Virus record (IMG/VR): IMGVR_UViG_3300037419_000842
DNA length: 34,919 bases
Strand: one strand, 5' to 3'
Source: a virus
In this document: positions 13,111 to 23,581 of the stretch, piece by piece
How the letters are laid out: the number at the start of each line of letters is the position of its first letter
Numbering within the stretch: the first letter of the stretch is position 1
Made by a program: the position numbers and the translations under genes
The notes under the pieces: generated by a model
Seen by the model: the letters and a program-made list of their open reading frames with translations, nothing else
What the model was told of the DNA's origin: nothing
The model's database searches: none

Positions 13111-13118
13111 ACATTGGG

Positions 13119-13150
13119 TCTGCTAGATTAATTTCTAGCAGATTTTTTAT
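13119..13150 (+). terminator. Intrinsic terminator
   Basis: TCTGCTAGA-TTAATT-TCTAGCAGA followed by TTTTTT. Confidence 0.8.
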
Positions 13151-13287: not shown

Positions 13288-13737
13288 ATGAATAAGTTTA
13301 AAGTTGGAGATATTGTAACTGGACTAACTAATTACGAGTGTCATGGAGAAGAGAATCCATATGGAATTACTGATCATAAAATGACCAAGGGAAAAGTCAT
13401 TGATTTAGAAGAAGAAGGCTGTATTAAAATTGAAATTTTAGAGCATGAAAGTAGCGCATACGTTGGAAAATATTTTTATGTCCGAGAAAAATACTTTAAA
13501 CTGGTGAAAGGGGAACCAAGTAAACCAGTAGAAAAAGTAGAAGTCTCTGCTAATCCATCTGGTGGACGAATTAAAGTTATAGAAGAAGTTGGCAAAACAT
13601 TCTTGATCATCGACAAGAAATATACTATCTGCCTTGAAGGTAATTTCTCTATTAGCATCCTGAACAAAGACGAAGATGTATACAATGAAGAAATTGGAAA
13701 AGCTCTGGCTTACCTCCGTTTCGAACAAAACAAATAA
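13288..13737 (+). CDS. Hypothetical protein, SH3-like N-domain (paralog 1)
   Basis: RBS AAGGGAG; NKFKVGDIVTG N-domain shared with the next gene. Confidence 0.7.
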   Translation: MNKFKVGDIVTGLTNYECHGEENPYGITDHKMTKGKVIDLEEEGCIKIEILEHESSAYVGKYFYVREKYFKLVKGEPSKPVEKVEVSANPSGGRIKVIEEVGKTFLIIDKKYTICLEGNFSISILNKDEDVYNEEIGKALAYLRFEQNK

Positions 13738-13766: not shown

Positions 13767-14264
13767 ATGGAGAACAAATTTAAAGTTGGAGATATTGTAA
13801 CTGGCAACGAATTGAGTAATGGGGAATATGGAATAATATCAACAGATATGCTAAAAGGGGAAGTTGTTGACATTCTTGGTCGTGAAATGACTATTCGGGT
13901 TTTAGAGCATAATTGCCCTCAGTATTACGGCGATGAATATGTTGTTAAACAAGAATGCTTTGATCTTGTAGAAGATAAAAAAGAAGTTAATTCATCAAAA
14001 GATAAAGAAGATATTAAAGCAGAAACACCGAAGAGTGATGCCAAAATTACTCTTGAAGATATGATTATTGTTGCGGCAGTTGGCGAATTCCTTGAACGGA
14101 ATTATGAAGATTCTGTTGCAGAAGTGGCAGGCGTTAGAGAACTTATTCTATTCACAATGGAGTCTATTAAAGCTACCAAAAGAATTCAAGAAGAAGATAA
14201 AAACTTTAACGAAGTTGAAGAAATTAGAAAAATCCTTCGTAAGTATGTAAAAAAAGCTCTATAA
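13767..14264 (+). CDS. Hypothetical protein, SH3-like N-domain (paralog 2)
   Basis: RBS AAGGAG; same N-domain, unrelated helical C-terminus. Confidence 0.7.
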   Translation: MENKFKVGDIVTGNELSNGEYGIISTDMLKGEVVDILGREMTIRVLEHNCPQYYGDEYVVKQECFDLVEDKKEVNSSKDKEDIKAETPKSDAKITLEDMIIVAAVGEFLERNYEDSVAEVAGVRELILFTMESIKATKRIQEEDKNFNEVEEIRKILRKYVKKAL

Positions 14265-14329
14265 GTGAAAGATAAAATAAATGGGGTGCGGATTGATTTC
14301 TGCACTCCAAAAACGAAAGGATGAACTGA

Positions 14330-15709
14330 ATGTTAAAAGATTTATTTTCTAATCCTCTTATTTTGACTGATACGTACAATCTATCTCATCAATTTCTCAA
14401 GTTCAATAATGACTGGGAAGTTAGCCATGTTTATAATAGAAAGCGTCCAATGGTACTTTATGGGGTTTCTGAAGCTGTAAATCGTGTTCTTTCTATTAAA
14501 ATTGAAATGTGGATGGTTGACGAAGCTGAACAATATGCAAAAGAAAAAAGTATGCCATTCCCAAGAGAGTTGTGGGAACGAGTTGTAAATGAATTCAATG
14601 GCTATGCACCAATCATGATTGAATCTCTTCCTGAAGGATCATATATTCCTGCTGGTACACCATTCATGCAGATTCGTAATACCGTTGAAGGATTTGGCGA
14701 ATTAAAGGATTGGTGGGAAGGTATTATTCTTCAAAATGCTTTTGCCTCTGGTTGCGCTACACGTGCATATGAAATGGCAAAGTATCTTAAAGACAACGAT
14801 CTTCCAATGATTCGTTTTCATAGTTTTGGATGGCGTGGGCATCAATGTCCAGAAAGTGGATATTGGGCTGGTACTGCTTGGAATCTATTCCTTGTAGGAA
14901 CTGATGATTTCCATACTAAAAAGCATACACCAAAAGCCAAGATTGGTAGCATTCCTGCACTTGCACATAAGGTAACTCAGCAATTCGATAAAGAATATGA
15001 TTGTTATATTCGTGCAATTGATTTTGCTGTCAATACGCCACTTCGAACTGTGGCATTAGTTATTGATACTTATGATGCTAATCGTTTTATTAATCAGTAT
15101 CTTATTGGCCTTGCTCGCTATGCACTTGACAAAGGTGTCCATATTGTTTGCCGTCCTGACAGTGGAGATGTTCTTGATCAAGCTATTGAGATTTACAAAG
15201 TATGTATTGAAAACAATCTTGCAAACGTCTCTGTGATCATTGGAGAAGGCATTACGTTTGAGGTGGTCAAAGCATATGATGCAAAGCTTAAAGATGCTGG
15301 AGTGCCATTGGCGTTCGTCTCTTATGGTATTGGTGCTGGATTCTACAAGGACATTGACCGTGACTACCTTGGATTTGCAATGAAGGTTGCATTCTCTAAT
15401 GGTAAGCCACGTATGAAATTTGGAATGACAGCGTTGAAGCGCAGTATTCCCGGCAAGGTTTCTATCATTAAAAAAGACGGAGATTTGCTCGTCATTCCTG
15501 AAGGAAGTCTTATGTCCTATACGTACAATGATCTTTATGAGATTATTTATGTTCATGATGACACTACTGAAGAGCCAATTATCAAAACAACTGAATGGAA
15601 TGAAATTTATGATCGTGTTCAAGAAGTTGATGATCATCAAAAAGTAATCTACATTTCTCAGGAAATTGAAAATATGATTGCTGAATTCAAAGAACAATAT
15701 AAAGGGTGA
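14330..15709 (+). CDS. nadV: Nicotinamide phosphoribosyltransferase (Nampt/NadV family), divergent
   Basis: LTDTY, HSFGWRG, GTD, SIPALAH, VIDTYD, RPDSGD, IIGEGI, YGIGAG, RDYLGFAMK, KRSIPG. Confidence 0.88.
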   Translation: MLKDLFSNPLILTDTYNLSHQFLKFNNDWEVSHVYNRKRPMVLYGVSEAVNRVLSIKIEMWMVDEAEQYAKEKSMPFPRELWERVVNEFNGYAPIMIESLPEGSYIPAGTPFMQIRNTVEGFGELKDWWEGIILQNAFASGCATRAYEMAKYLKDNDLPMIRFHSFGWRGHQCPESGYWAGTAWNLFLVGTDDFHTKKHTPKAKIGSIPALAHKVTQQFDKEYDCYIRAIDFAVNTPLRTVALVIDTYDANRFINQYLIGLARYALDKGVHIVCRPDSGDVLDQAIEIYKVCIENNLANVSVIIGEGITFEVVKAYDAKLKDAGVPLAFVSYGIGAGFYKDIDRDYLGFAMKVAFSNGKPRMKFGMTALKRSIPGKVSIIKKDGDLLVIPEGSLMSYTYNDLYEIIYVHDDTTEEPIIKTTEWNEIYDRVQEVDDHQKVIYISQEIENMIAEFKEQYKG

Positions 15710-15714
15710 TATGT

Positions 15715-16488
15715 ATGGAAATGAATATGAACAATAAAGATGCAAATGGAGATATTATTAGCGCAACACCGCCTAGGCCTTGGACAATTGGCGATCCTCC
15801 ACCATATAATCATGAAAAAAATAACACAATCTGGACTGGGCCATCAACTTTCCCATATCTTACACCTATGCCTAAAAAACCATTTAAATTTGGTTTTTTG
15901 CTTGGACGATTCCAGCATATTCATATTGGTCATGAACAAATGATTGATAGAGCGCTTGATGTTTGCGAGAAGGTTTTGGTCATTGTTGGCTCTGCACAAG
16001 ATGATGCACGAATTACCAATCCAATTCGCAATCCGTTTGAAACTCATTTTCGCATTAGGCTTATCAATGAGATTTATAAAGACAAGCCAAATCTCTTTGT
16101 AACGTCTATGCCTGATTTGACTCACGAAAATGATCATAGCTGGGCATGGGGCAACTTTGTTCTTCAAAATGTTGCACTGCGAGCTAATCAGTATGATATC
16201 AAAGAAAGTCCTGATATTATGGTTTTTGGTAATGACGAAGAAAGAATGTCGTGGTTTAATCCAGACGATATCAAGACAGTTAATCAACTGATTGTTGCGC
16301 GTGGAAACATTGACATTAGTGCTACTCAAATGCGCAATTATCTTGTTGAAAATAATTTTTGGAAATGGCGGCAGTATGTAAACTTGAAACTTTCACCATT
16401 GTTCCCTGTAATTCGTGAAGAACTTTTCAAAGTAGAACACTACAGAAAGTTGGCTGAAGAAAATGGAACAATCAATGCCCACAAGTAA
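15715..16488 (+). CDS. nadM: Nicotinamide-nucleotide adenylyltransferase (NadM-like) with Pro-rich N-terminal extension
   Basis: GRFQHIHIGH, VGSAQ, RNPF...R, ISATQMR. Start ATG 15715 or GTG 15706. Confidence 0.9.
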   Translation: MEMNMNNKDANGDIISATPPRPWTIGDPPPYNHEKNNTIWTGPSTFPYLTPMPKKPFKFGFLLGRFQHIHIGHEQMIDRALDVCEKVLVIVGSAQDDARITNPIRNPFETHFRIRLINEIYKDKPNLFVTSMPDLTHENDHSWAWGNFVLQNVALRANQYDIKESPDIMVFGNDEERMSWFNPDDIKTVNQLIVARGNIDISATQMRNYLVENNFWKWRQYVNLKLSPLFPVIREELFKVEHYRKLAEENGTINAHK

Positions 16489-17020
16489 ACTTTGCAAGGA
16501 AAATTATAAAGGTGCCATTTACACTGATCGAACTGAAGAAATTTCATTTCCAGACGGAAAGAAAATTACTAGAGATGTTATTGTAAAAAATGAAGTGGCG
16601 GTCGCACTGGTTCATAATATTGACACTGATACTGTAGTTCTTATTAGAGAATTTAGAGTTGGTTCTATGAAGTATGAACTTGGTGGCGTTGCTGGCATTG
16701 TTGAAGTTGGTGAATATCCCATGAATGCAATTGTTAGAGAACTTGTTGAAGAAACTGGGTATAGTGATACAGTTATTGTACAATCCCTTGGAACAACTAT
16801 GACTTCCTCTGGCTTTACCAATGAAAAAGTTCATCACTTTTACATTAAAGTGAGGGGCTTGAGAGGCGATCAGAATCTTGATGCAGATGAATCTATTGAA
16901 GTTATTGAGCGTCCTTTTGAAGATATTGCTATTATGATGGCAAATGGTGAAATTACTTCTAATCATTTACACGCTTGCTTGTTAAAACTTATGATGAATA
17001 ATGGATATGAATTGGTATGA
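16463..17020 (+). CDS. nudF: Nudix hydrolase, ADP-ribose pyrophosphatase (NudF)-like
   Basis: Nudix box GIVEVGEYPMNAIVRELVEETGY; ADPRase-like LIREFR, SSGFTNE and LDADESIEV. Confidence 0.85.
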   Translation: MEQSMPTSKLCKENYKGAIYTDRTEEISFPDGKKITRDVIVKNEVAVALVHNIDTDTVVLIREFRVGSMKYELGGVAGIVEVGEYPMNAIVRELVEETGYSDTVIVQSLGTTMTSSGFTNEKVHHFYIKVRGLRGDQNLDADESIEVIERPFEDIAIMMANGEITSNHLHACLLKLMMNNGYELV

Positions 17021-17029
17021 TGAATGGGA

Positions 17030-17188
17030 ATGATTAAATTTGAATATAAAGAAGTACCTTTTCATTCACTGTCGCCTCATCATGGGCAACTTAGTATAAA
17101 ATTATTAAATGAATTAGGTGCCCAAGGTTGGGAACTTGTAACTATTATCAGTGGAGAATGTATCTTTAAACGACAAATAAAAGAATAA
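17030..17188 (+). CDS. DUF4177-like small protein (52 aa, not in ORF track)
   Basis: MIKFEYKEV...LNELGAQGWELV...IFKR signature. Confidence 0.75.
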   Translation: MIKFEYKEVPFHSLSPHHGQLSIKLLNELGAQGWELVTIISGECIFKRQIKE

Positions 17189-17195
17189 ACAACTA

Positions 17196-17224
17196 TTGAC
17201 ATTTGGCACTCTATATGGTAAAAT
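17196..17224 (+). promoter_or_regulatory. SigA-type promoter
   Basis: TTGACA-17-TAAAAT with TGn. Confidence 0.75.
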
Positions 17225-17255
17225 GGATTTTACTTGCTAGAGTGCCATTTATTTT
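17204..17255 (+). terminator. Long palindrome, probable terminator of the NAD operon
   Basis: TGGCACTCTA-TATG-GTAAAAT-GG-ATTTTAC-TTGC-TAGAGTGCCA followed by TTTATTTT. Confidence 0.6.
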
Positions 17256-17269
17256 AAGGAGGTTAAAAG

Positions 17270-17653
17270 ATGTTTTGGAACAAAGATGATAATGCAGAAA
17301 AAGTTAAAGGTAGAAGTGTAAAATATTTTATTGATGATGTTATTAAAAATATTGGAATTGATAAGACTATTACAATTAACAATGTTAAATTTCATGTAGC
17401 GAATGATCCTTGGTATCGTATTAGCGGAAAATCTGCATCTGAATCTATATCCATTATAATTACTCTGATCAATGATGATGATGAACTTGTTGTATTTAAA
17501 GATGATGAATGGCTCTATCAAGGATCATGGTGCGATAAGATTTACAAGATCATTGACGATATTAAAGAACAAAAGCAAAGAGCAAAAGTAAGGAAAGATA
17601 AAGAATTTGCAGATAAATTAGAGAGATTTGAAAAAGCGTTTGGTGATGAGTAA
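17270..17653 (+). CDS. Hypothetical phage protein
   Basis: RBS AAGGAGG; 127 aa. Confidence 0.7.
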   Translation: MFWNKDDNAEKVKGRSVKYFIDDVIKNIGIDKTITINNVKFHVANDPWYRISGKSASESISIIITLINDDDELVVFKDDEWLYQGSWCDKIYKIIDDIKEQKQRAKVRKDKEFADKLERFEKAFGDE

Positions 17654-19078: not shown

Positions 19079-21385
19079 ATGGAATTAAATGTAATTGATA
19101 ATTGTGCTTGTTGTGCAACTGAAGATGGATTTGTAAATCTCCATTTACACACAGCATATTCGCTTCTCGATGCACTTAGTAAGCCAGAAGATATTATAGC
19201 AAAAGTAAAAGGTTTAAATCAAAGAGGATTTGCTTGTACGGAACACGGCAACGTTCATAGTTCTGTAAAAGCTTATAAATTGGCTAAAGAAAATTCTTTG
19301 AAGTTTATTTATGGATTAGAGGCATATATCACTGAAGATAGATTTATCAAAGATAAAACAAATAAATACTATCATCTAACTATCCTAGCAAAAAATGAAC
19401 AGGGTAGACAGAACATCAATAAGCTTGTAACAATCTCCAATCTTGAAGGATTTTATTTTAAACCTCGTATTGACTTTAAATTGCTTGAAGAATTTGGTGA
19501 TGGCTTAATCATCATGTCAGGATGTATGGCCTCTGAATTGCAACAAGCATTAGCTGGAGGAAAGATTGGTAATGGTGATGTTGAAATAACATCTGGCAAC
19601 ATTGAGAGAGCCAAAGAAATTGCAAGACGTTATCGTAATGCATTTGGTGAGGATTATTATCTTGAAGTTCAATCACACAGAGATAAGCGTCAACAGCAAT
19701 TAAATCGTGCGATAGTTGACATTGCAAAAGACTTAGGCATTCAATGGGTTGCTACTGCTGACAGTCATTTTGTCAATGAAGAAGATTTAGATTTGCACAG
19801 GGTTTTCATTGGTATCAACCGTAACAAAGACGATTTTGAATCTGACGAAACATATCAAGACACACAGATTCAAAGTGAAAAAGAGGCATGGAATCTTCTT
19901 ATGTCTTTGACTGAAGATGAGCGTAATGTTGCAATTAGGAATACTCTGAACATAATGGATAAATGCAATGCTCCATTGCCACTTTCAGCACCTTTAATTC
20001 CTCATGTTAAAGTTCCAGAAGGTTTTGAAACTGAGGAAGATTACTTGCAACATTTGTGTAACGAGGGATGGAAGTTTAGGAAGATTGGATATAAATCAAA
20101 GAAGCTTCAACAAGAATATAGGGACAGACTTATTTATGAATTTAATGCGATCAAGGATATGGGATTCACAGGATACTATCTCCTTGTTTATGGATACGCA
20201 ACATCTGTTCGCAGAAGAGGTATTGCACGTGGTTCTGGTGGAGGTTCGCTTGTAGCTTATCTGATTAATATTGTAGATATTGATCCAATTGAACATGGAT
20301 TGTATTTTGAGCGCTTTATTGATGTTGCCCAACTTGATTTAATCAAGAGTGGAGAGCTTAAGCCTGAAGAGATTAAAATACCAGATTTTGATTTGGATTT
20401 CGGCACAAAAGAACGCGATCTTGTCTATAACAATATCGTTACTGAACATGGGTATGAGCATGTTGTAGCTCTTGGTCAATTTGGTTACATCTGGACCAAG
20501 AGCGCTATCAAGGATGTTGGTAGAGTGCTTGGAGTGCCATTTGAAGTAACGAATGAGATAACGAAGCTACTAGGAGAGGATACGATTGCAGAAGGGCTTA
20601 CAAGTGGCATTCTGAAGCCCTATCAGCGTCAATATCCAAGACTGTTTGAGTATGCAATGAAACTAGAAGGATTACCCCGCTCATATGGAATGCATCCATG
20701 CGGTAAGGTAGTAACGATTGATCCTGCTGTTTATTATACAGGATTATCACAGAAGGAAGGTCAGCTTGTCTTACAAGTTGACATGAAAGATGCAGAAGCA
20801 CTTGGTTTAGTTAAGGTAGATTTACTTGGACTTCGTACAGTTGATGTAATCTATGACACACTAGATATGATTGGCAAGGACACTGAATATATCCGTAACA
20901 TCACATACGATTGTGCTGAGATGTTAGAAATCTTTAAAAATGGATTTACTGACGGAGTTTTCCAGTTCGAGAGCGAAGGTATGAAGCAAACATTGATAAA
21001 TATGATTCCTACCCATTTAGATGATCTAGGAGTTGTAAATGCTCTGTATAGGCCAGGAAGTTTGAAATATATCAAAAACTACATTGATAGGAAGCACGGA
21101 AGAGAACAATTTGAATATCTTCACCCTGATCTTGAACGTATTCTTAAAATCTCTTATGGCATTATTGTATATCAAGAACAACTGATTGAGATTGGACGAA
21201 TGGCTGGCATGCGTAATCCAGACCTTTTACGTCAAGCTACAGGTAAAAAAGATATGAAGAAACTTGCGAAAGCTGAGCCTGAACTTCGTGATGGCTTGTA
21301 CAAAAGAGGTTGGACAAAGGAGCAGGTAGATCAATTGTGGGAAGATATGCTGAACTTCGCCAAATATTCATTTAATAAAGCCCAT
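19079..21385 (+). CDS. dnaE: DNA polymerase III alpha (family C), exon 1 (769 codons)
   Basis: PHP domain HLHTAYSLLD, RGSGGGSLVAY, PDFDLDF, K.DLLGL, GVFQFES, ALYRPG, YQEQ; ends in YSFNKAH. Confidence 0.95.
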
Positions 21386-21560
21386 AAAATGTGTGTGGCT
21401 TAGTGTGGCGACATACTAAGAAAATCCTTCTAATTGCGGGGAACTCCTAAAGACTTCAATACCAACTTAATATGGTGACATGATTAAGGGCGTTGCTAAC
21501 TACAACGATATGGTAAAAAGTTGAAGTATAAATAATATGGACAATCCGCATCGAGACTTC

Positions 21561-21589
21561 TTGAAATAATTTACATCCCATGATACAAT
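21561..21589 (+). promoter_or_regulatory. Intron-internal SigA-type promoter for the endonuclease
   Basis: TTGAAA-17-TACAAT with TGn, followed by AAAGGAGG and ATG 21613. Confidence 0.65.
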
Positions 21590-21612
21590 AGAAAGAAAGG
21601 AGGTTATAAATT

Positions 21613-22617
21613 ATGGCAAAAAAATATACTCAAAAACAAAAAGAACTTATTTTAAAATTATATCAAGAGGCACAAGACTTGGATGAGGCTATATTAAGAT
21701 TAAAAGAACAAGGAATAGTCATGACTAGGCAGGCAATGGCTGATATGGCTCACGATAATGGTATAAAAAGAAAAAGAATTTATACAAAACAAAACAAATT
21801 ATCAGTCATAGAGATAAGGCAATTAGTTTCAGATTATGAGTCTGGTATTTTTACTATGGAAGAATTGATAAAAAAGTATGGTTTTAAAACAAGAAAATCA
21901 ATAACAGATAAAGTTAAACTTTATAATGGCAAAATGAGAACGCAAGATGAAGCTAATAAAATGAGAAAAACTTATGAAGAAACAATGTTTAATAAGCTTG
22001 ATGCGGAATGGAAAGCTTATATGGTTGGACTGCTTCTTACCGATGGTTATATTACCAATGATCAAATAGGACTTGATTTAACCGATGAAGATGCAATAAG
22101 TTATCTTGCAGAAATGACTGGAAAGGGTAATTACACGACAATTGTTGATAGTTGTAAAAGTAAAAAGGCAAAATATAGACTAACTCTTAATTCTAAAACA
22201 ATTATAGATGATTTGACTAGATTTGGGGTTGTGCCAAGAAAATCTCTAACATTAAAGGGGCCGTTGCTCAATGAAGATGAAAGAAATTATATTCCACATA
22301 TCTTTAAAGGAATTATTGATGGAGACGGCTGGATTAGAAGTGATGGCAAAGAATTTTTTATCGTTTCTGCTTCAAGAGATTTTCTTGAGTGGTGCATAAA
22401 AGAGTTAATTCTATTAGGAATGAGTAATTTAAAAATTACTCAAAAAACATTTGATAATGAAAAGTGGAATGACTGTTTTCTTGTTAGGACTGCTCTTAAA
22501 TCAAATATAACTATTTTAAAAGAGAAAATATACGTCTATGACTTAGGGATGGGTCGTAAACGTGAAAAATTATTTCAAGAAGGGCGTTCAGAGACTACCA
22601 CAAGGAAATCTCAATAA
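21613..22617 (+). CDS. Intron-encoded double-motif LAGLIDADG homing endonuclease
   Basis: AYMVGLLLTDGYI and HIFKGIIDGDGWI, basic HTH-like N-terminus. Located in the P6a loop; its 3' end runs through P7 and P3 into P8. Confidence 0.93.
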   Translation: MAKKYTQKQKELILKLYQEAQDLDEAILRLKEQGIVMTRQAMADMAHDNGIKRKRIYTKQNKLSVIEIRQLVSDYESGIFTMEELIKKYGFKTRKSITDKVKLYNGKMRTQDEANKMRKTYEETMFNKLDAEWKAYMVGLLLTDGYITNDQIGLDLTDEDAISYLAEMTGKGNYTTIVDSCKSKKAKYRLTLNSKTIIDDLTRFGVVPRKSLTLKGPLLNEDERNYIPHIFKGIIDGDGWIRSDGKEFFIVSASRDFLEWCIKELILLGMSNLKITQKTFDNEKWNDCFLVRTALKSNITILKEKIYVYDLGMGRKREKLFQEGRSETTTRKSQ

Positions 22618-22690
22618 ACTTTGAGATTATGGTATAGTCCAGACCACAACGTATATATAATGCGACTAAGGAAATCTTAGTGTGGTAAAG

Positions 22691-23581
22691 TCACAAGCTT
22701 ATGCAATTATTGCAATGATCTGTGCATATCTGAAAGCATTCCACCCAACTGAGTTTATGTGTGCATGGCTTAACTCCTTAGTAGATCATCACGATAAAAT
22801 TGAAACTGCTTTCAAAGAGGCTAAACGAATGGGAGTTAAAATAAAGCCATTAAATTTCAAAGATGCAAATGCTTTATGTAAAGTGGTTGATGGAGAGCTT
22901 GTCTACGGAATCTCTTTGATTAAACACTGTAACGCTCAGATTGCAGAAGATATTGCAAAGCTTCAGCCAGCAAATCGTTTTGTTGATATGATCATTCAAA
23001 TCAAAGAACTTACTTCAATCAACTCTAAACAACTTGATATCCTTATCAAACTTGATTTCTTCTCTGAGTATGGAAGCAAAGAACTATTGCTTACAATCCT
23101 TAAAGAAGTCAACGATGGCAAGAGCAGATATAACAAGACGCACAAGGAGGCAACTAAGCTCAAACGAATTGCGGCACTTCATGAATATGAGGACGAGCTT
23201 AGACAGGGACAAGTTGACTTGTCCATTAAACCATATGAACAAATTGCATTTGAACTTGATCATTATGGTTTCATCAAAACAACTTTTAAAGAAATTCCTA
23301 AAACAATACTAGCTGTAATGGATATCGACATGAAGCCTAAAACAGCTTATATTGCAGTTAAGTCATTCTGCTATAAAACTGGAGACACGTTTGAGTTCAG
23401 AGTCAAGAAGGATAAGTTTTATGGCAAAAAAGATATTGAATCTTTTGAAGTTGGAGATTCCATTAAGATCAAAAATCTTTCTGAAAAAGCTAGAGTACGT
23501 AAAGATGAAACTACTGGCAAATGGATTGAAACTGGAGTAAATGATTATTATCTTGAGAAAGCAATAAAAATAAAACTATAA
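22691..23581 (+). CDS. dnaE: DNA polymerase III alpha, exon 2 (296 codons)
   Basis: SQAYAIIAMICAYLKAFHPTEF matches the DnaE AYA...AYLKAHYP.EF motif; YGISLIK. Spliced product is 1065 aa. Confidence 0.93.
   Translation, partial: SQAYAIIAMICAYLKAFHPTEFMCAWLNSLVDHHDKIETAFKEAKRMGVKIKPLNFKDANALCKVVDGELVYGISLIKHCNAQIAEDIAKLQPANRFVDMIIQIKELTSINSKQLDILIKLDFFSEYGSKELLLTILKEVNDGKSRYNKTHKEATKLKRIAALHEYEDELRQGQVDLSIKPYEQIAFELDHYGFIKTTFKEIPKTILAVMDIDMKPKTAYIAVKSFCYKTGDTFEFRVKKDKFYGKKDIESFEVGDSIKIKNLSEKARVRKDETTGKWIETGVNDYYLEKAIKIKL

Follow-up and report, generated by a model that had tools for sequence, protein, structure and literature searches.

The 34,919-nucleotide stretch of viral DNA analysed here (the window; bases 52768-87686 of the 169,219-bp IMG/VR virus record IMGVR_UViG_3300037419_000842, rated complete by CheckV) carries at 14330-17188 four + strand open reading frames (ORFs), arranged almost without spacing, that probably constitute a NARP2-type salvage cassette for nicotinamide adenine dinucleotide (NAD+): a three-enzyme unit with an ADP-ribose-splitting Nudix hydrolase, accompanied by a DUF4177 protein as a passenger. 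The enzymes are a nicotinamide phosphoribosyltransferase (Nampt), a nicotinamide mononucleotide (NMN) adenylyltransferase (NMNAT) and a stand-alone Nudix protein, and it is their three genes, translationally coupled, that form the conserved unit. Anti-phage defences of bacteria commonly end in the depletion of NAD+ (Thoeris, DSR and SIR2-HerA are examples), and a separate Nudix resembling ADP-ribose pyrophosphatases (ADPRases) is recurrently attached to the salvage genes in a Bacillales-type NARP2 lineage. The phage itself, with a GC content of ~34%, probably infects Bacillus-like bacteria or other Bacillales.

The enzyme genes and their relatives

The four genes are as follows (window coordinates):

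14330..15709, + strand: Nampt (NadV-like nicotinamide phosphoribosyltransferase), 459 amino acids; PF04095, phrog_448, PRK09198
15715..16488, + strand: NadM-type NMN adenylyltransferase, 257 amino acids (260 from GTG 15706); PF01467, NCBIfam NMNAT models
16463..17020, + strand: stand-alone Nudix hydrolase of the ADPRase/NDP-sugar (nucleoside diphosphate sugar) hydrolase subfamily, 185 amino acids; PF00293, intact Nudix box
17024..17188, + strand: DUF4177 small protein, 54 amino acids; PF13783

The TGA stop of the Nampt gene overlaps a GTG at 15706 by 4 nt, and an in-frame ATG (15715) lies 6 nt past that stop; the ATG, behind the sequence AAAGGGTGA, is more likely to be the NMNAT start than the GTG. 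The Nudix ATG (16463) creates a 26-nt overlap with the NMNAT gene, and 3 nt separate the Nudix stop from the DUF4177 ATG.

All four identities agree across Pfam, PHROG and NCBIfam. Nampt is recognized by PF04095 (E 2e-12), phrog_448 (E 3e-51) and PRK09198 (E 7e-47), and its matches in the PDB are Nampts without exception (32/32). Alignment to human Nampt shows that the equivalents of F193, R196, D219, H247, R311 and D313 are kept, including D219, which we take to be the determinant of nicotinamide versus nicotinate. Identity to the NadV proteins of Bacillales reaches 49-59%, and more than 120 homologues at 49-57% identity come from Bacillus, Paenibacillus and Brevibacillus and from numerous metagenome contigs (130-170 kb). 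Every Nampt of the cultured-phage collection is <30% identical to that of the window, and no nearly identical DNA was found in the phage collection, a search from which close records may be masked.

The NMNAT matches PF01467 (E 3e-12) and the NadM, NadR and archaeal NMNAT models of NCBIfam, with 2qjo (Synechocystis NadM-Nudix) and 1f9a (archaeal NMNAT) as its closest PDB relatives. Its motifs GRFQHIHIGH and ISATQMR are intact, and 10 relatives show the patterns GRFQxxHxGH and SATxxR without variation. The domain is preceded by a Pro- and Gly-rich extension of ~55 residues (15715-15880), which is poorly conserved and occurs in some relatives only; it is present in L009 and L013, both of them carriers of the type-A Nudix described below, and absent from L010 and from the type-B loci. 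A promoter-like TGGACA-18-TATAAT lies inside this extension at 15781-15810 and is probably there by chance. In the cultured collection no Firmicute phage carries this NMNAT at E <= 1e-5, and all matches at that level come from phages of Gram-negative or cyanobacterial hosts.

The only Nudix protein of the 169-kb genome matches PF00293 (E 2e-10) as well as the NudE, YffH, NudK and NudF models. The Nudix box GX5EX7REUXEEXGU is complete (GIVEVGEYPMNAIVRELVEETGY), and alignment with cellular ADPRases shows no variation at R65, R92, E93, E96, E97 or, further downstream, E143. Its best PDB sequence match is an ADPRase (E 1e-11). The AlphaFold2 model (pLDDT 93.9) has an N-terminal beta domain (strands 7-42) ahead of the Nudix fold and was matched by Foldseek, at a TM (template modelling) score of ~0.8, to a Bdellovibrio NDP-sugar hydrolase (NDPSase) with ADP-ribose, E. 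coli NudK, Klebsiella ADPRase, M. tuberculosis ADPRase and NUDT5. Judged from these sequence and fold relations, the predicted substrate is most likely ADP-ribose, which would be split into AMP and ribose-5-phosphate.

The overlapping or abutting order and the four identities had been proposed in an earlier note on this DNA, and the ORFs, their spacing and the family matches agree with it, the catalytic motifs being all intact. The note had also described the Nudix as separate and NudF-like, not of the kind fused to NadM, which holds good: PRK05379 gave no match, no 2qjo-type chain was among the Nudix matches, and the best sequence and fold matches are ADPRases and NDP-sugar hydrolases. Furthermore, it had noticed no PRPP-synthetase-like (Adps) gene (PRPP, phosphoribosyl pyrophosphate) in the window and had assigned the route to NARP2 and not to NARP1. 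The absence extends to the whole 169-kb genome, where the Prs/Adps domains PF13793 and PF14572 were not found, with controls positive in 14/14 genomes. Since Adps is absent and the NMNAT gene is adjacent to Nampt, the cassette fits the NARP2 definition (Nampt plus Nmnat). As for other NAD or ADP-ribose genes, none was found in the genome (PnuC, NAD+-dependent ligase and Macro were sought).

Gene order was counted in 19 distinct related viral or assembly loci, with the downstream genes scored. Nampt, NMNAT and Nudix genes are contiguous in 12 of them, and the same three genes with small inserts occur in 2 more; in one further locus (L023) Nampt is followed by PnuC, with a Nudix further on, and altogether a Nudix recurs beside Nampt or NMNAT in 15/19 loci. 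In IMG/VR loci, members of the same Nampt clade were seen with PnuC (L023), with a calcineurin-like metallophosphatase (L025-L029) or with a SLOG/YAcAr protein (L035) as partner. This suggests further variants of NAD/ADP-ribose modules in large phages that probably infect Bacillales.

The Nudix slot is occupied by two highly divergent forms, type A (the window, L009, L010 and L013) and type B (L002, L006, L011 and others), whose BLAST similarity is limited to the Nudix box. Non-orthologous replacement was considered and rejected, since profile comparison relates the two at 96% probability over 114 columns, the N-terminal domain included; they are thus very divergent homologues.

A quick maximum-likelihood search placed the window Nampt in a 100%-supported clade with chromosomal NadV of Bacillales, inside which the sequences from viral and other unclassified contigs (~50-250 kb) group together with 97% support. 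NadV of a KVP40-like Vibrio phage (D480) and two NARP1 Namats, each of which adjoins a Prs-like gene, lie across very long branches. In a Paenibacillus chromosome (L008) a NadV homologue follows a Nudix-plus-winged-helix (NrtR-like) gene and precedes an NMNAT-like gene. The Nampt is of Bacillales origin, and taken together these relations suggest that NARP2 chemistry has a second lineage, derived from host (Bacillales) NadV/NadM, among large phages probably infecting Bacillales. So far the lineage has been seen in metagenome contigs and in unclassified contigs of ~130-145 kb from bacterial assemblies.

The DUF4177 protein is recognized by PF13783 at 26.6 bits, just above the cut-off of 25, and by phrog_18269 (E 6e-14), and it bears the family signature FEYK...LNxLGxxGWELV...FKR. 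An exhaustive search gave 41 DUF4177 representatives, mostly phage-like and of ~50 residues, some of them tandem-repeat proteins, and most share FEYK...LNELGxEGWELV...FKRE. Two of their loci were opened: NAD genes are absent from both, and the neighbours are arrays of small unknown genes, or a YopX gene plus a transposase. DUF4177 stands next to a Nudix only in the window phage and in the 2.3-kb contig L012, which shares 98% identity with the window; in the other related cassettes unrelated small ORFs take its position. The AlphaFold2 model is confident (pLDDT 92, beta-alpha-beta-beta), yet a fold search of the PDB returned no match at E <= 0.001, so the fold gives no lead to the function. In the literature DUF4177 is described only as of unknown function. 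The functional four-gene unit of the earlier note is thus not upheld, and DUF4177 looks like a lineage-specific, co-transcribed passenger that is not part of the pathway.

A separate observation concerns the comparison with L012 (2,320 nt, ~99.9% identical elsewhere): 35 of the 44 mismatches, together with a 3-nt indel, fall within 17051-17123, codons 10-34 of the DUF4177 gene, and 8 further mismatches lie at the Nudix 3' end. We read the patch as a local allele swap in the loop under least constraint, or else as a loop that diversifies rapidly. A diversity-generating retroelement was considered as its source and rejected, as the genome contains no reverse transcriptase and no template-like repeat.

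Proposed mechanism and competing readings

It is established that Nampt makes NMN from nicotinamide and PRPP, that NMNAT makes NAD+ from NMN and ATP, and that ADPRases split ADP-ribose into AMP and ribose-5-phosphate. Applied to the cassette, these reactions could be arranged in a loop: Nampt would join nicotinamide to PRPP, the NadM-type NMNAT would adenylate the resulting NMN with ATP, and the Nudix would cleave ADP-ribose, whereupon host Prs could plausibly turn the ribose-5-phosphate back into PRPP. Both products of NADases would then be returned to NAD+ with the help of host Prs, at an ATP cost higher than that of NARP1, and the loop would relieve the PRPP drain of the NARP2 route and clear ADP-ribose. 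If the Nudix indeed returns ADP-ribose via ribose-5-phosphate, the three genes would be an ordinary-enzyme equivalent of NARP1. A role in countering NAD+-depleting systems is likewise plausible. The drain of PRPP was suggested by Osterman et al. as the cost of NARP2 (10.1101/2024.02.11.579819), and the Nudix loop, if true, could explain how phages bear this cost, which is an incremental claim.

Several observations weigh against this reading. All four proteins score far under the curated NCBIfam/equivalog cut-offs, e.g., Nampt reaches 160 bits with PRK09198 where 405 are required, and the Nudix reaches 57.7 against 169 bits with NudE, 44.7 against 79.55 with TIGR00052 and 25.2 against 248 with NudF; they are divergent family members, and such scores do not secure their exact specificities. 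As a match to the Nudix fold, the GDP-mannose hydrolase NudK equals the ADPRases. The hallmark of ADPRases, reportedly a proline ~15-16 residues past the Nudix box (a rule said to come from Dunn et al., 1999), is missing: the window Nudix has TSSGF where a Bacillus ADPRase has TSPGF, and the position is Ser or Ala in 9/9 members of the phage clade and Pro in 7/9 aligned cellular relatives. The closest Nudix of the cultured collection (38.6% identical), in Lysinibacillus phage LysYB1, occurs without Nampt or NMNAT, and 4 of the 19 loci have no Nudix near Nampt, the neighbours being a metallophosphatase, a SLOG protein or an unknown protein.

The cassette might instead be a general metabolic booster, supplying NAD+ for phage replication in any host together with the nucleotide-metabolism genes nearby, and with no specific counter-defence role. 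Such a role is unlikely but has its merits, as the cassette lies in a + strand block that also encodes ribonucleotide reductase, thymidylate synthase, RNase H and DNA polymerase III alpha (DnaE-type), and as the NARP2 of KVP40 lifts NAD+ even when no defence system is present (10.1101/2024.02.11.579819). Against it, the phage encodes no NAD+-dependent ligase and NARP2 was shown to overcome NAD+-depleting defences; both roles can coexist.

It is rather improbable that the Nudix acts mainly outside salvage, as a mere neighbour that destroys an ADP-ribose-derived or other NDP-X molecule (gcADPR or His-ADPR; NADH or Ap3A, as NudE does). The earlier note had likewise suggested that it might destroy immune signals based on ADP-ribose, or else strip ADP-ribosylation. 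What favours this is the setting in LysYB1 (L014, vB_LfM_LysYB1, OP628075.1 119596-121311), where a Nudix of the same clade follows a phage sigma factor and precedes a DHH-superfamily phosphohydrolase, and which is a Nudix context independent of NAD+ salvage. The flanks in L010 (6949-8587) are like those of LysYB1, but there Nampt and NMNAT stand ahead of the type-A Nudix, and a 333-aa ORF with no Pfam match takes the place of the phosphohydrolase annotated as DHH in LysYB1. The clade-specific SSGFTNE in place of SPGF speaks in the same direction, as does the very fast divergence in the slot, where types A and B are recognisable as related by profile comparison only. These points are countered by the recurrence of the Nudix beside Nampt or NMNAT in the loci counted above, by the retained catalytic and ribose-phosphate-binding residues of ADPRases, and by the fact that ADPRase domains are a known partner of NadM.

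A still bolder possibility, which is to be regarded as speculative and improbable, is that the Nudix constitutes a second counter-defence arm, cleaving an ADP-ribose-derived messenger of the gcADPR/His-ADPR type or another NDP-X signal, and that DUF4177, with its hypervariable patch, may be a small defence-binding protein, so that the cassette would couple signal destruction to NAD+ rebuilding. This would explain why the Nudix occurs without salvage genes in some SPO1-like phages, why the ADPRase proline was lost, and why sequences within one slot diverged beyond the reach of BLAST. Least probable is a true four-component system, in which the pathway would have DUF4177 as a regulatory or binding subunit. 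In its favour one may cite the short Nudix-DUF4177 gap with no promoter or terminator inside and the retention of the gene in the near-twin L012, but the gene is absent from all other related cassettes, its homologues lie among unrelated small phage genes, and the protein has no fold match.

Flanking signals and neighbouring genes

The salvage cassette read above is bounded by the following elements:

14263..14279, + strand: promoter-like motif AAGTGAAAGATAAAATA, without a -35 hexamer at the usual spacing
14282..14309, + strand: 11-bp leader hairpin between the motif and the ribosome-binding site, with no U-tract after it
17196..17224, + strand: near-consensus SigA-type promoter TTGACA-17-TGgTAAAAT (11/12 matches plus TG extension) for the gene 17270-17653
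17204..17256, + strand: two-tier hairpin plus UUUAUUUU, likely the cassette terminator (fold z -4.7)

A motif with a hairpin upstream and a terminator-like palindrome downstream had been pointed out in the earlier note, and motif counts together with fold z-scores (-5.3 and -4.7) bear this out. The motif RWAAGATAAAATA is matched 8 times in the window (1.46 expected by chance), one of the matches being GAAAGATAAAATA at 14267-14279; exact RWAAGATAAAATA has 6 copies in the genome, all 6/6 on the + strand and 5 of them inside the window. Several copies of RWAAGATAAAATA are the -10 part of TTGACN-17 promoters, and the one at 14267 has no -35. The motif is also kept before Nampt in two relatives, L009 and L013, with only ~44-54% protein identity to the window. 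This supports a real promoter element for the cassette, which probably has its own phage-type promoter.

The leader hairpin (11 bp, -20 kcal/mol, z -5.3; 0/200 shuffles fold as well) is followed by AAAAA. Searched against Rfam, the window gave no match at gathering level, and the segment 13000-17400 gave only noise at E <= 1; as far as Rfam families go, this disposes of an NAD+ riboswitch or another known RNA element for the leader. A conserved leader hairpin was considered as well and rejected: none was found upstream of Nampt in the relatives, and the hairpin is thus lineage-specific. That it serves as a 5' stabiliser is only a guess.

At the other end of the cassette, the hairpin at 17204-17248 is followed by UUUAUUUU, and a 90-nt fold reaches -25.8 kcal/mol. 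The hairpin encloses the -10 box of the promoter that serves the gene at 17270. Transcripts starting from the promoter at 17196 would lack the 5' arm of the hairpin and would presumably escape termination. The hairpin is identical in L012, therefore no covariation signal can be obtained from that pair.

Similar elements were observed elsewhere. A promoter-like element AAATG[TA]AAGATAAAAT stands ahead of many genes on the + strand at 4140-27060 of the window, and four sites (5640, 10666, 14267 and 27047) have a hairpin no more than ~25 nt past the motif or past a full SigA-type promoter, two of them with a U-tract. From position 1 to ~27.7 kb of the window every sizeable gene is on the + strand, the one for an NlpC/P60 peptidase included. 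Directly upstream of the cassette lie two tandem paralogous genes, 13288-13737 and 13767-14264 (149 and 165 amino acids; ~38% identity; similar 5' ends). A clean terminator (13116-13145) and then tandem TTGACT-17 promoters (13158, 13229) precede them, and neither Pfam nor PHROG recognises them or gives them a function. Downstream, the DnaE-type DNA polymerase III alpha (19079-23581) is present in two ORFs, of 774 amino acids (PHP, NTPase and finger domains) and 299 amino acids (HHH_6), separated by an ORF for a LAGLIDADG endonuclease (21613-22617). In the relatives L013 and L009 the polymerase is a single ORF of ~1,070 amino acids. No group I intron is recognised by Rfam at gathering level.

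Relation to described systems

The closest functional counterpart of the cassette is the NARP2 of Vibrio phage KVP40. In B. subtilis, Nampt plus Nmnat of that phage increase NAD+ and defeat Thoeris, DSR and SIR2-HerA (10.1101/2024.02.11.579819). A survey of phage NadV with NadM-Nudix also exists (PMC9503650). Like KVP40 NARP2, the window cassette comprises both salvage reactions, has a Nudix activity attached to the pathway, lacks Adps and resides in a large phage genome. The differences concern lineage and architecture. The window Nampt belongs to a separate deep clade with NadV of Bacillales, outside the KVP40-type clade, and, unlike in NatV of KVP40, NMNAT and Nudix are two overlapping ORFs, the latter belonging to the NudF/NDP-sugar hydrolase subfamily and not to the NadM-fused clade. 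The biochemistry of NadV as a Nampt and of NatV as an NMNAT-Nudix was reportedly worked out by Lee et al. in 2017 (as cited in PMC7139368). As far as sequence can tell, the chemistry of the cassette is that of NARP2, in a lineage independent of the KVP40 type.

The Nampt and NMNAT closest in sequence (52 and 35% identity) are those of the Paenibacillus L008 operon, which also has the same order, NadV then NadM. Unlike the window cassette, this operon opens with the Nudix-plus-winged-helix gene (NUDIX; WHD_NrtR is only a faint match), whereas the window has an intact-box Nudix after NadM and its own promoter-like motif. For the NrtR regulon of bacterial NAD salvage, PMC13464706 cites Rodionov et al. 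(2008).

With NARP1 (Adps plus Namat; Bacillus phage PJN02 and Staphylococcus phage HSA30) the cassette shares the phosphoribosyltransferase superfamily, Firmicute hosts and the goal of making NAD+ from ADP-ribose and nicotinamide, and both Firmicute phages of the cultured collection whose Nampt-family locus was opened (PJN02 and HSA30; 2/2) carry NARP1 pairs. In contrast to NARP1, the window genome has no Prs-like Adps, the NARP1 Namats are far away in the tree, and any reuse of ADP-ribose would proceed here by hydrolysis and host Prs instead of pyrophosphorylation. The Nudix resembles ADP-ribose/NDP-sugar pyrophosphatases (B. methanolicus 8wv3/9jax, Bdellovibrio 5c7t, NudK 3o61, Klebsiella 9b22 and NUDT5) in the fold of the N-terminal beta domain, the Nudix box, the Arg and the downstream Glu, and differs from them in being 19-28% identical, in carrying SSGFTNE for SPGF/SPGW and in falling under every curated cut-off. 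The cassette is thus a known kind of system, the described two-enzyme NAD+ route, in a new arrangement, and what is new in it is the independent Nampt/NMNAT lineage, the split architecture and a Nudix of another subfamily.

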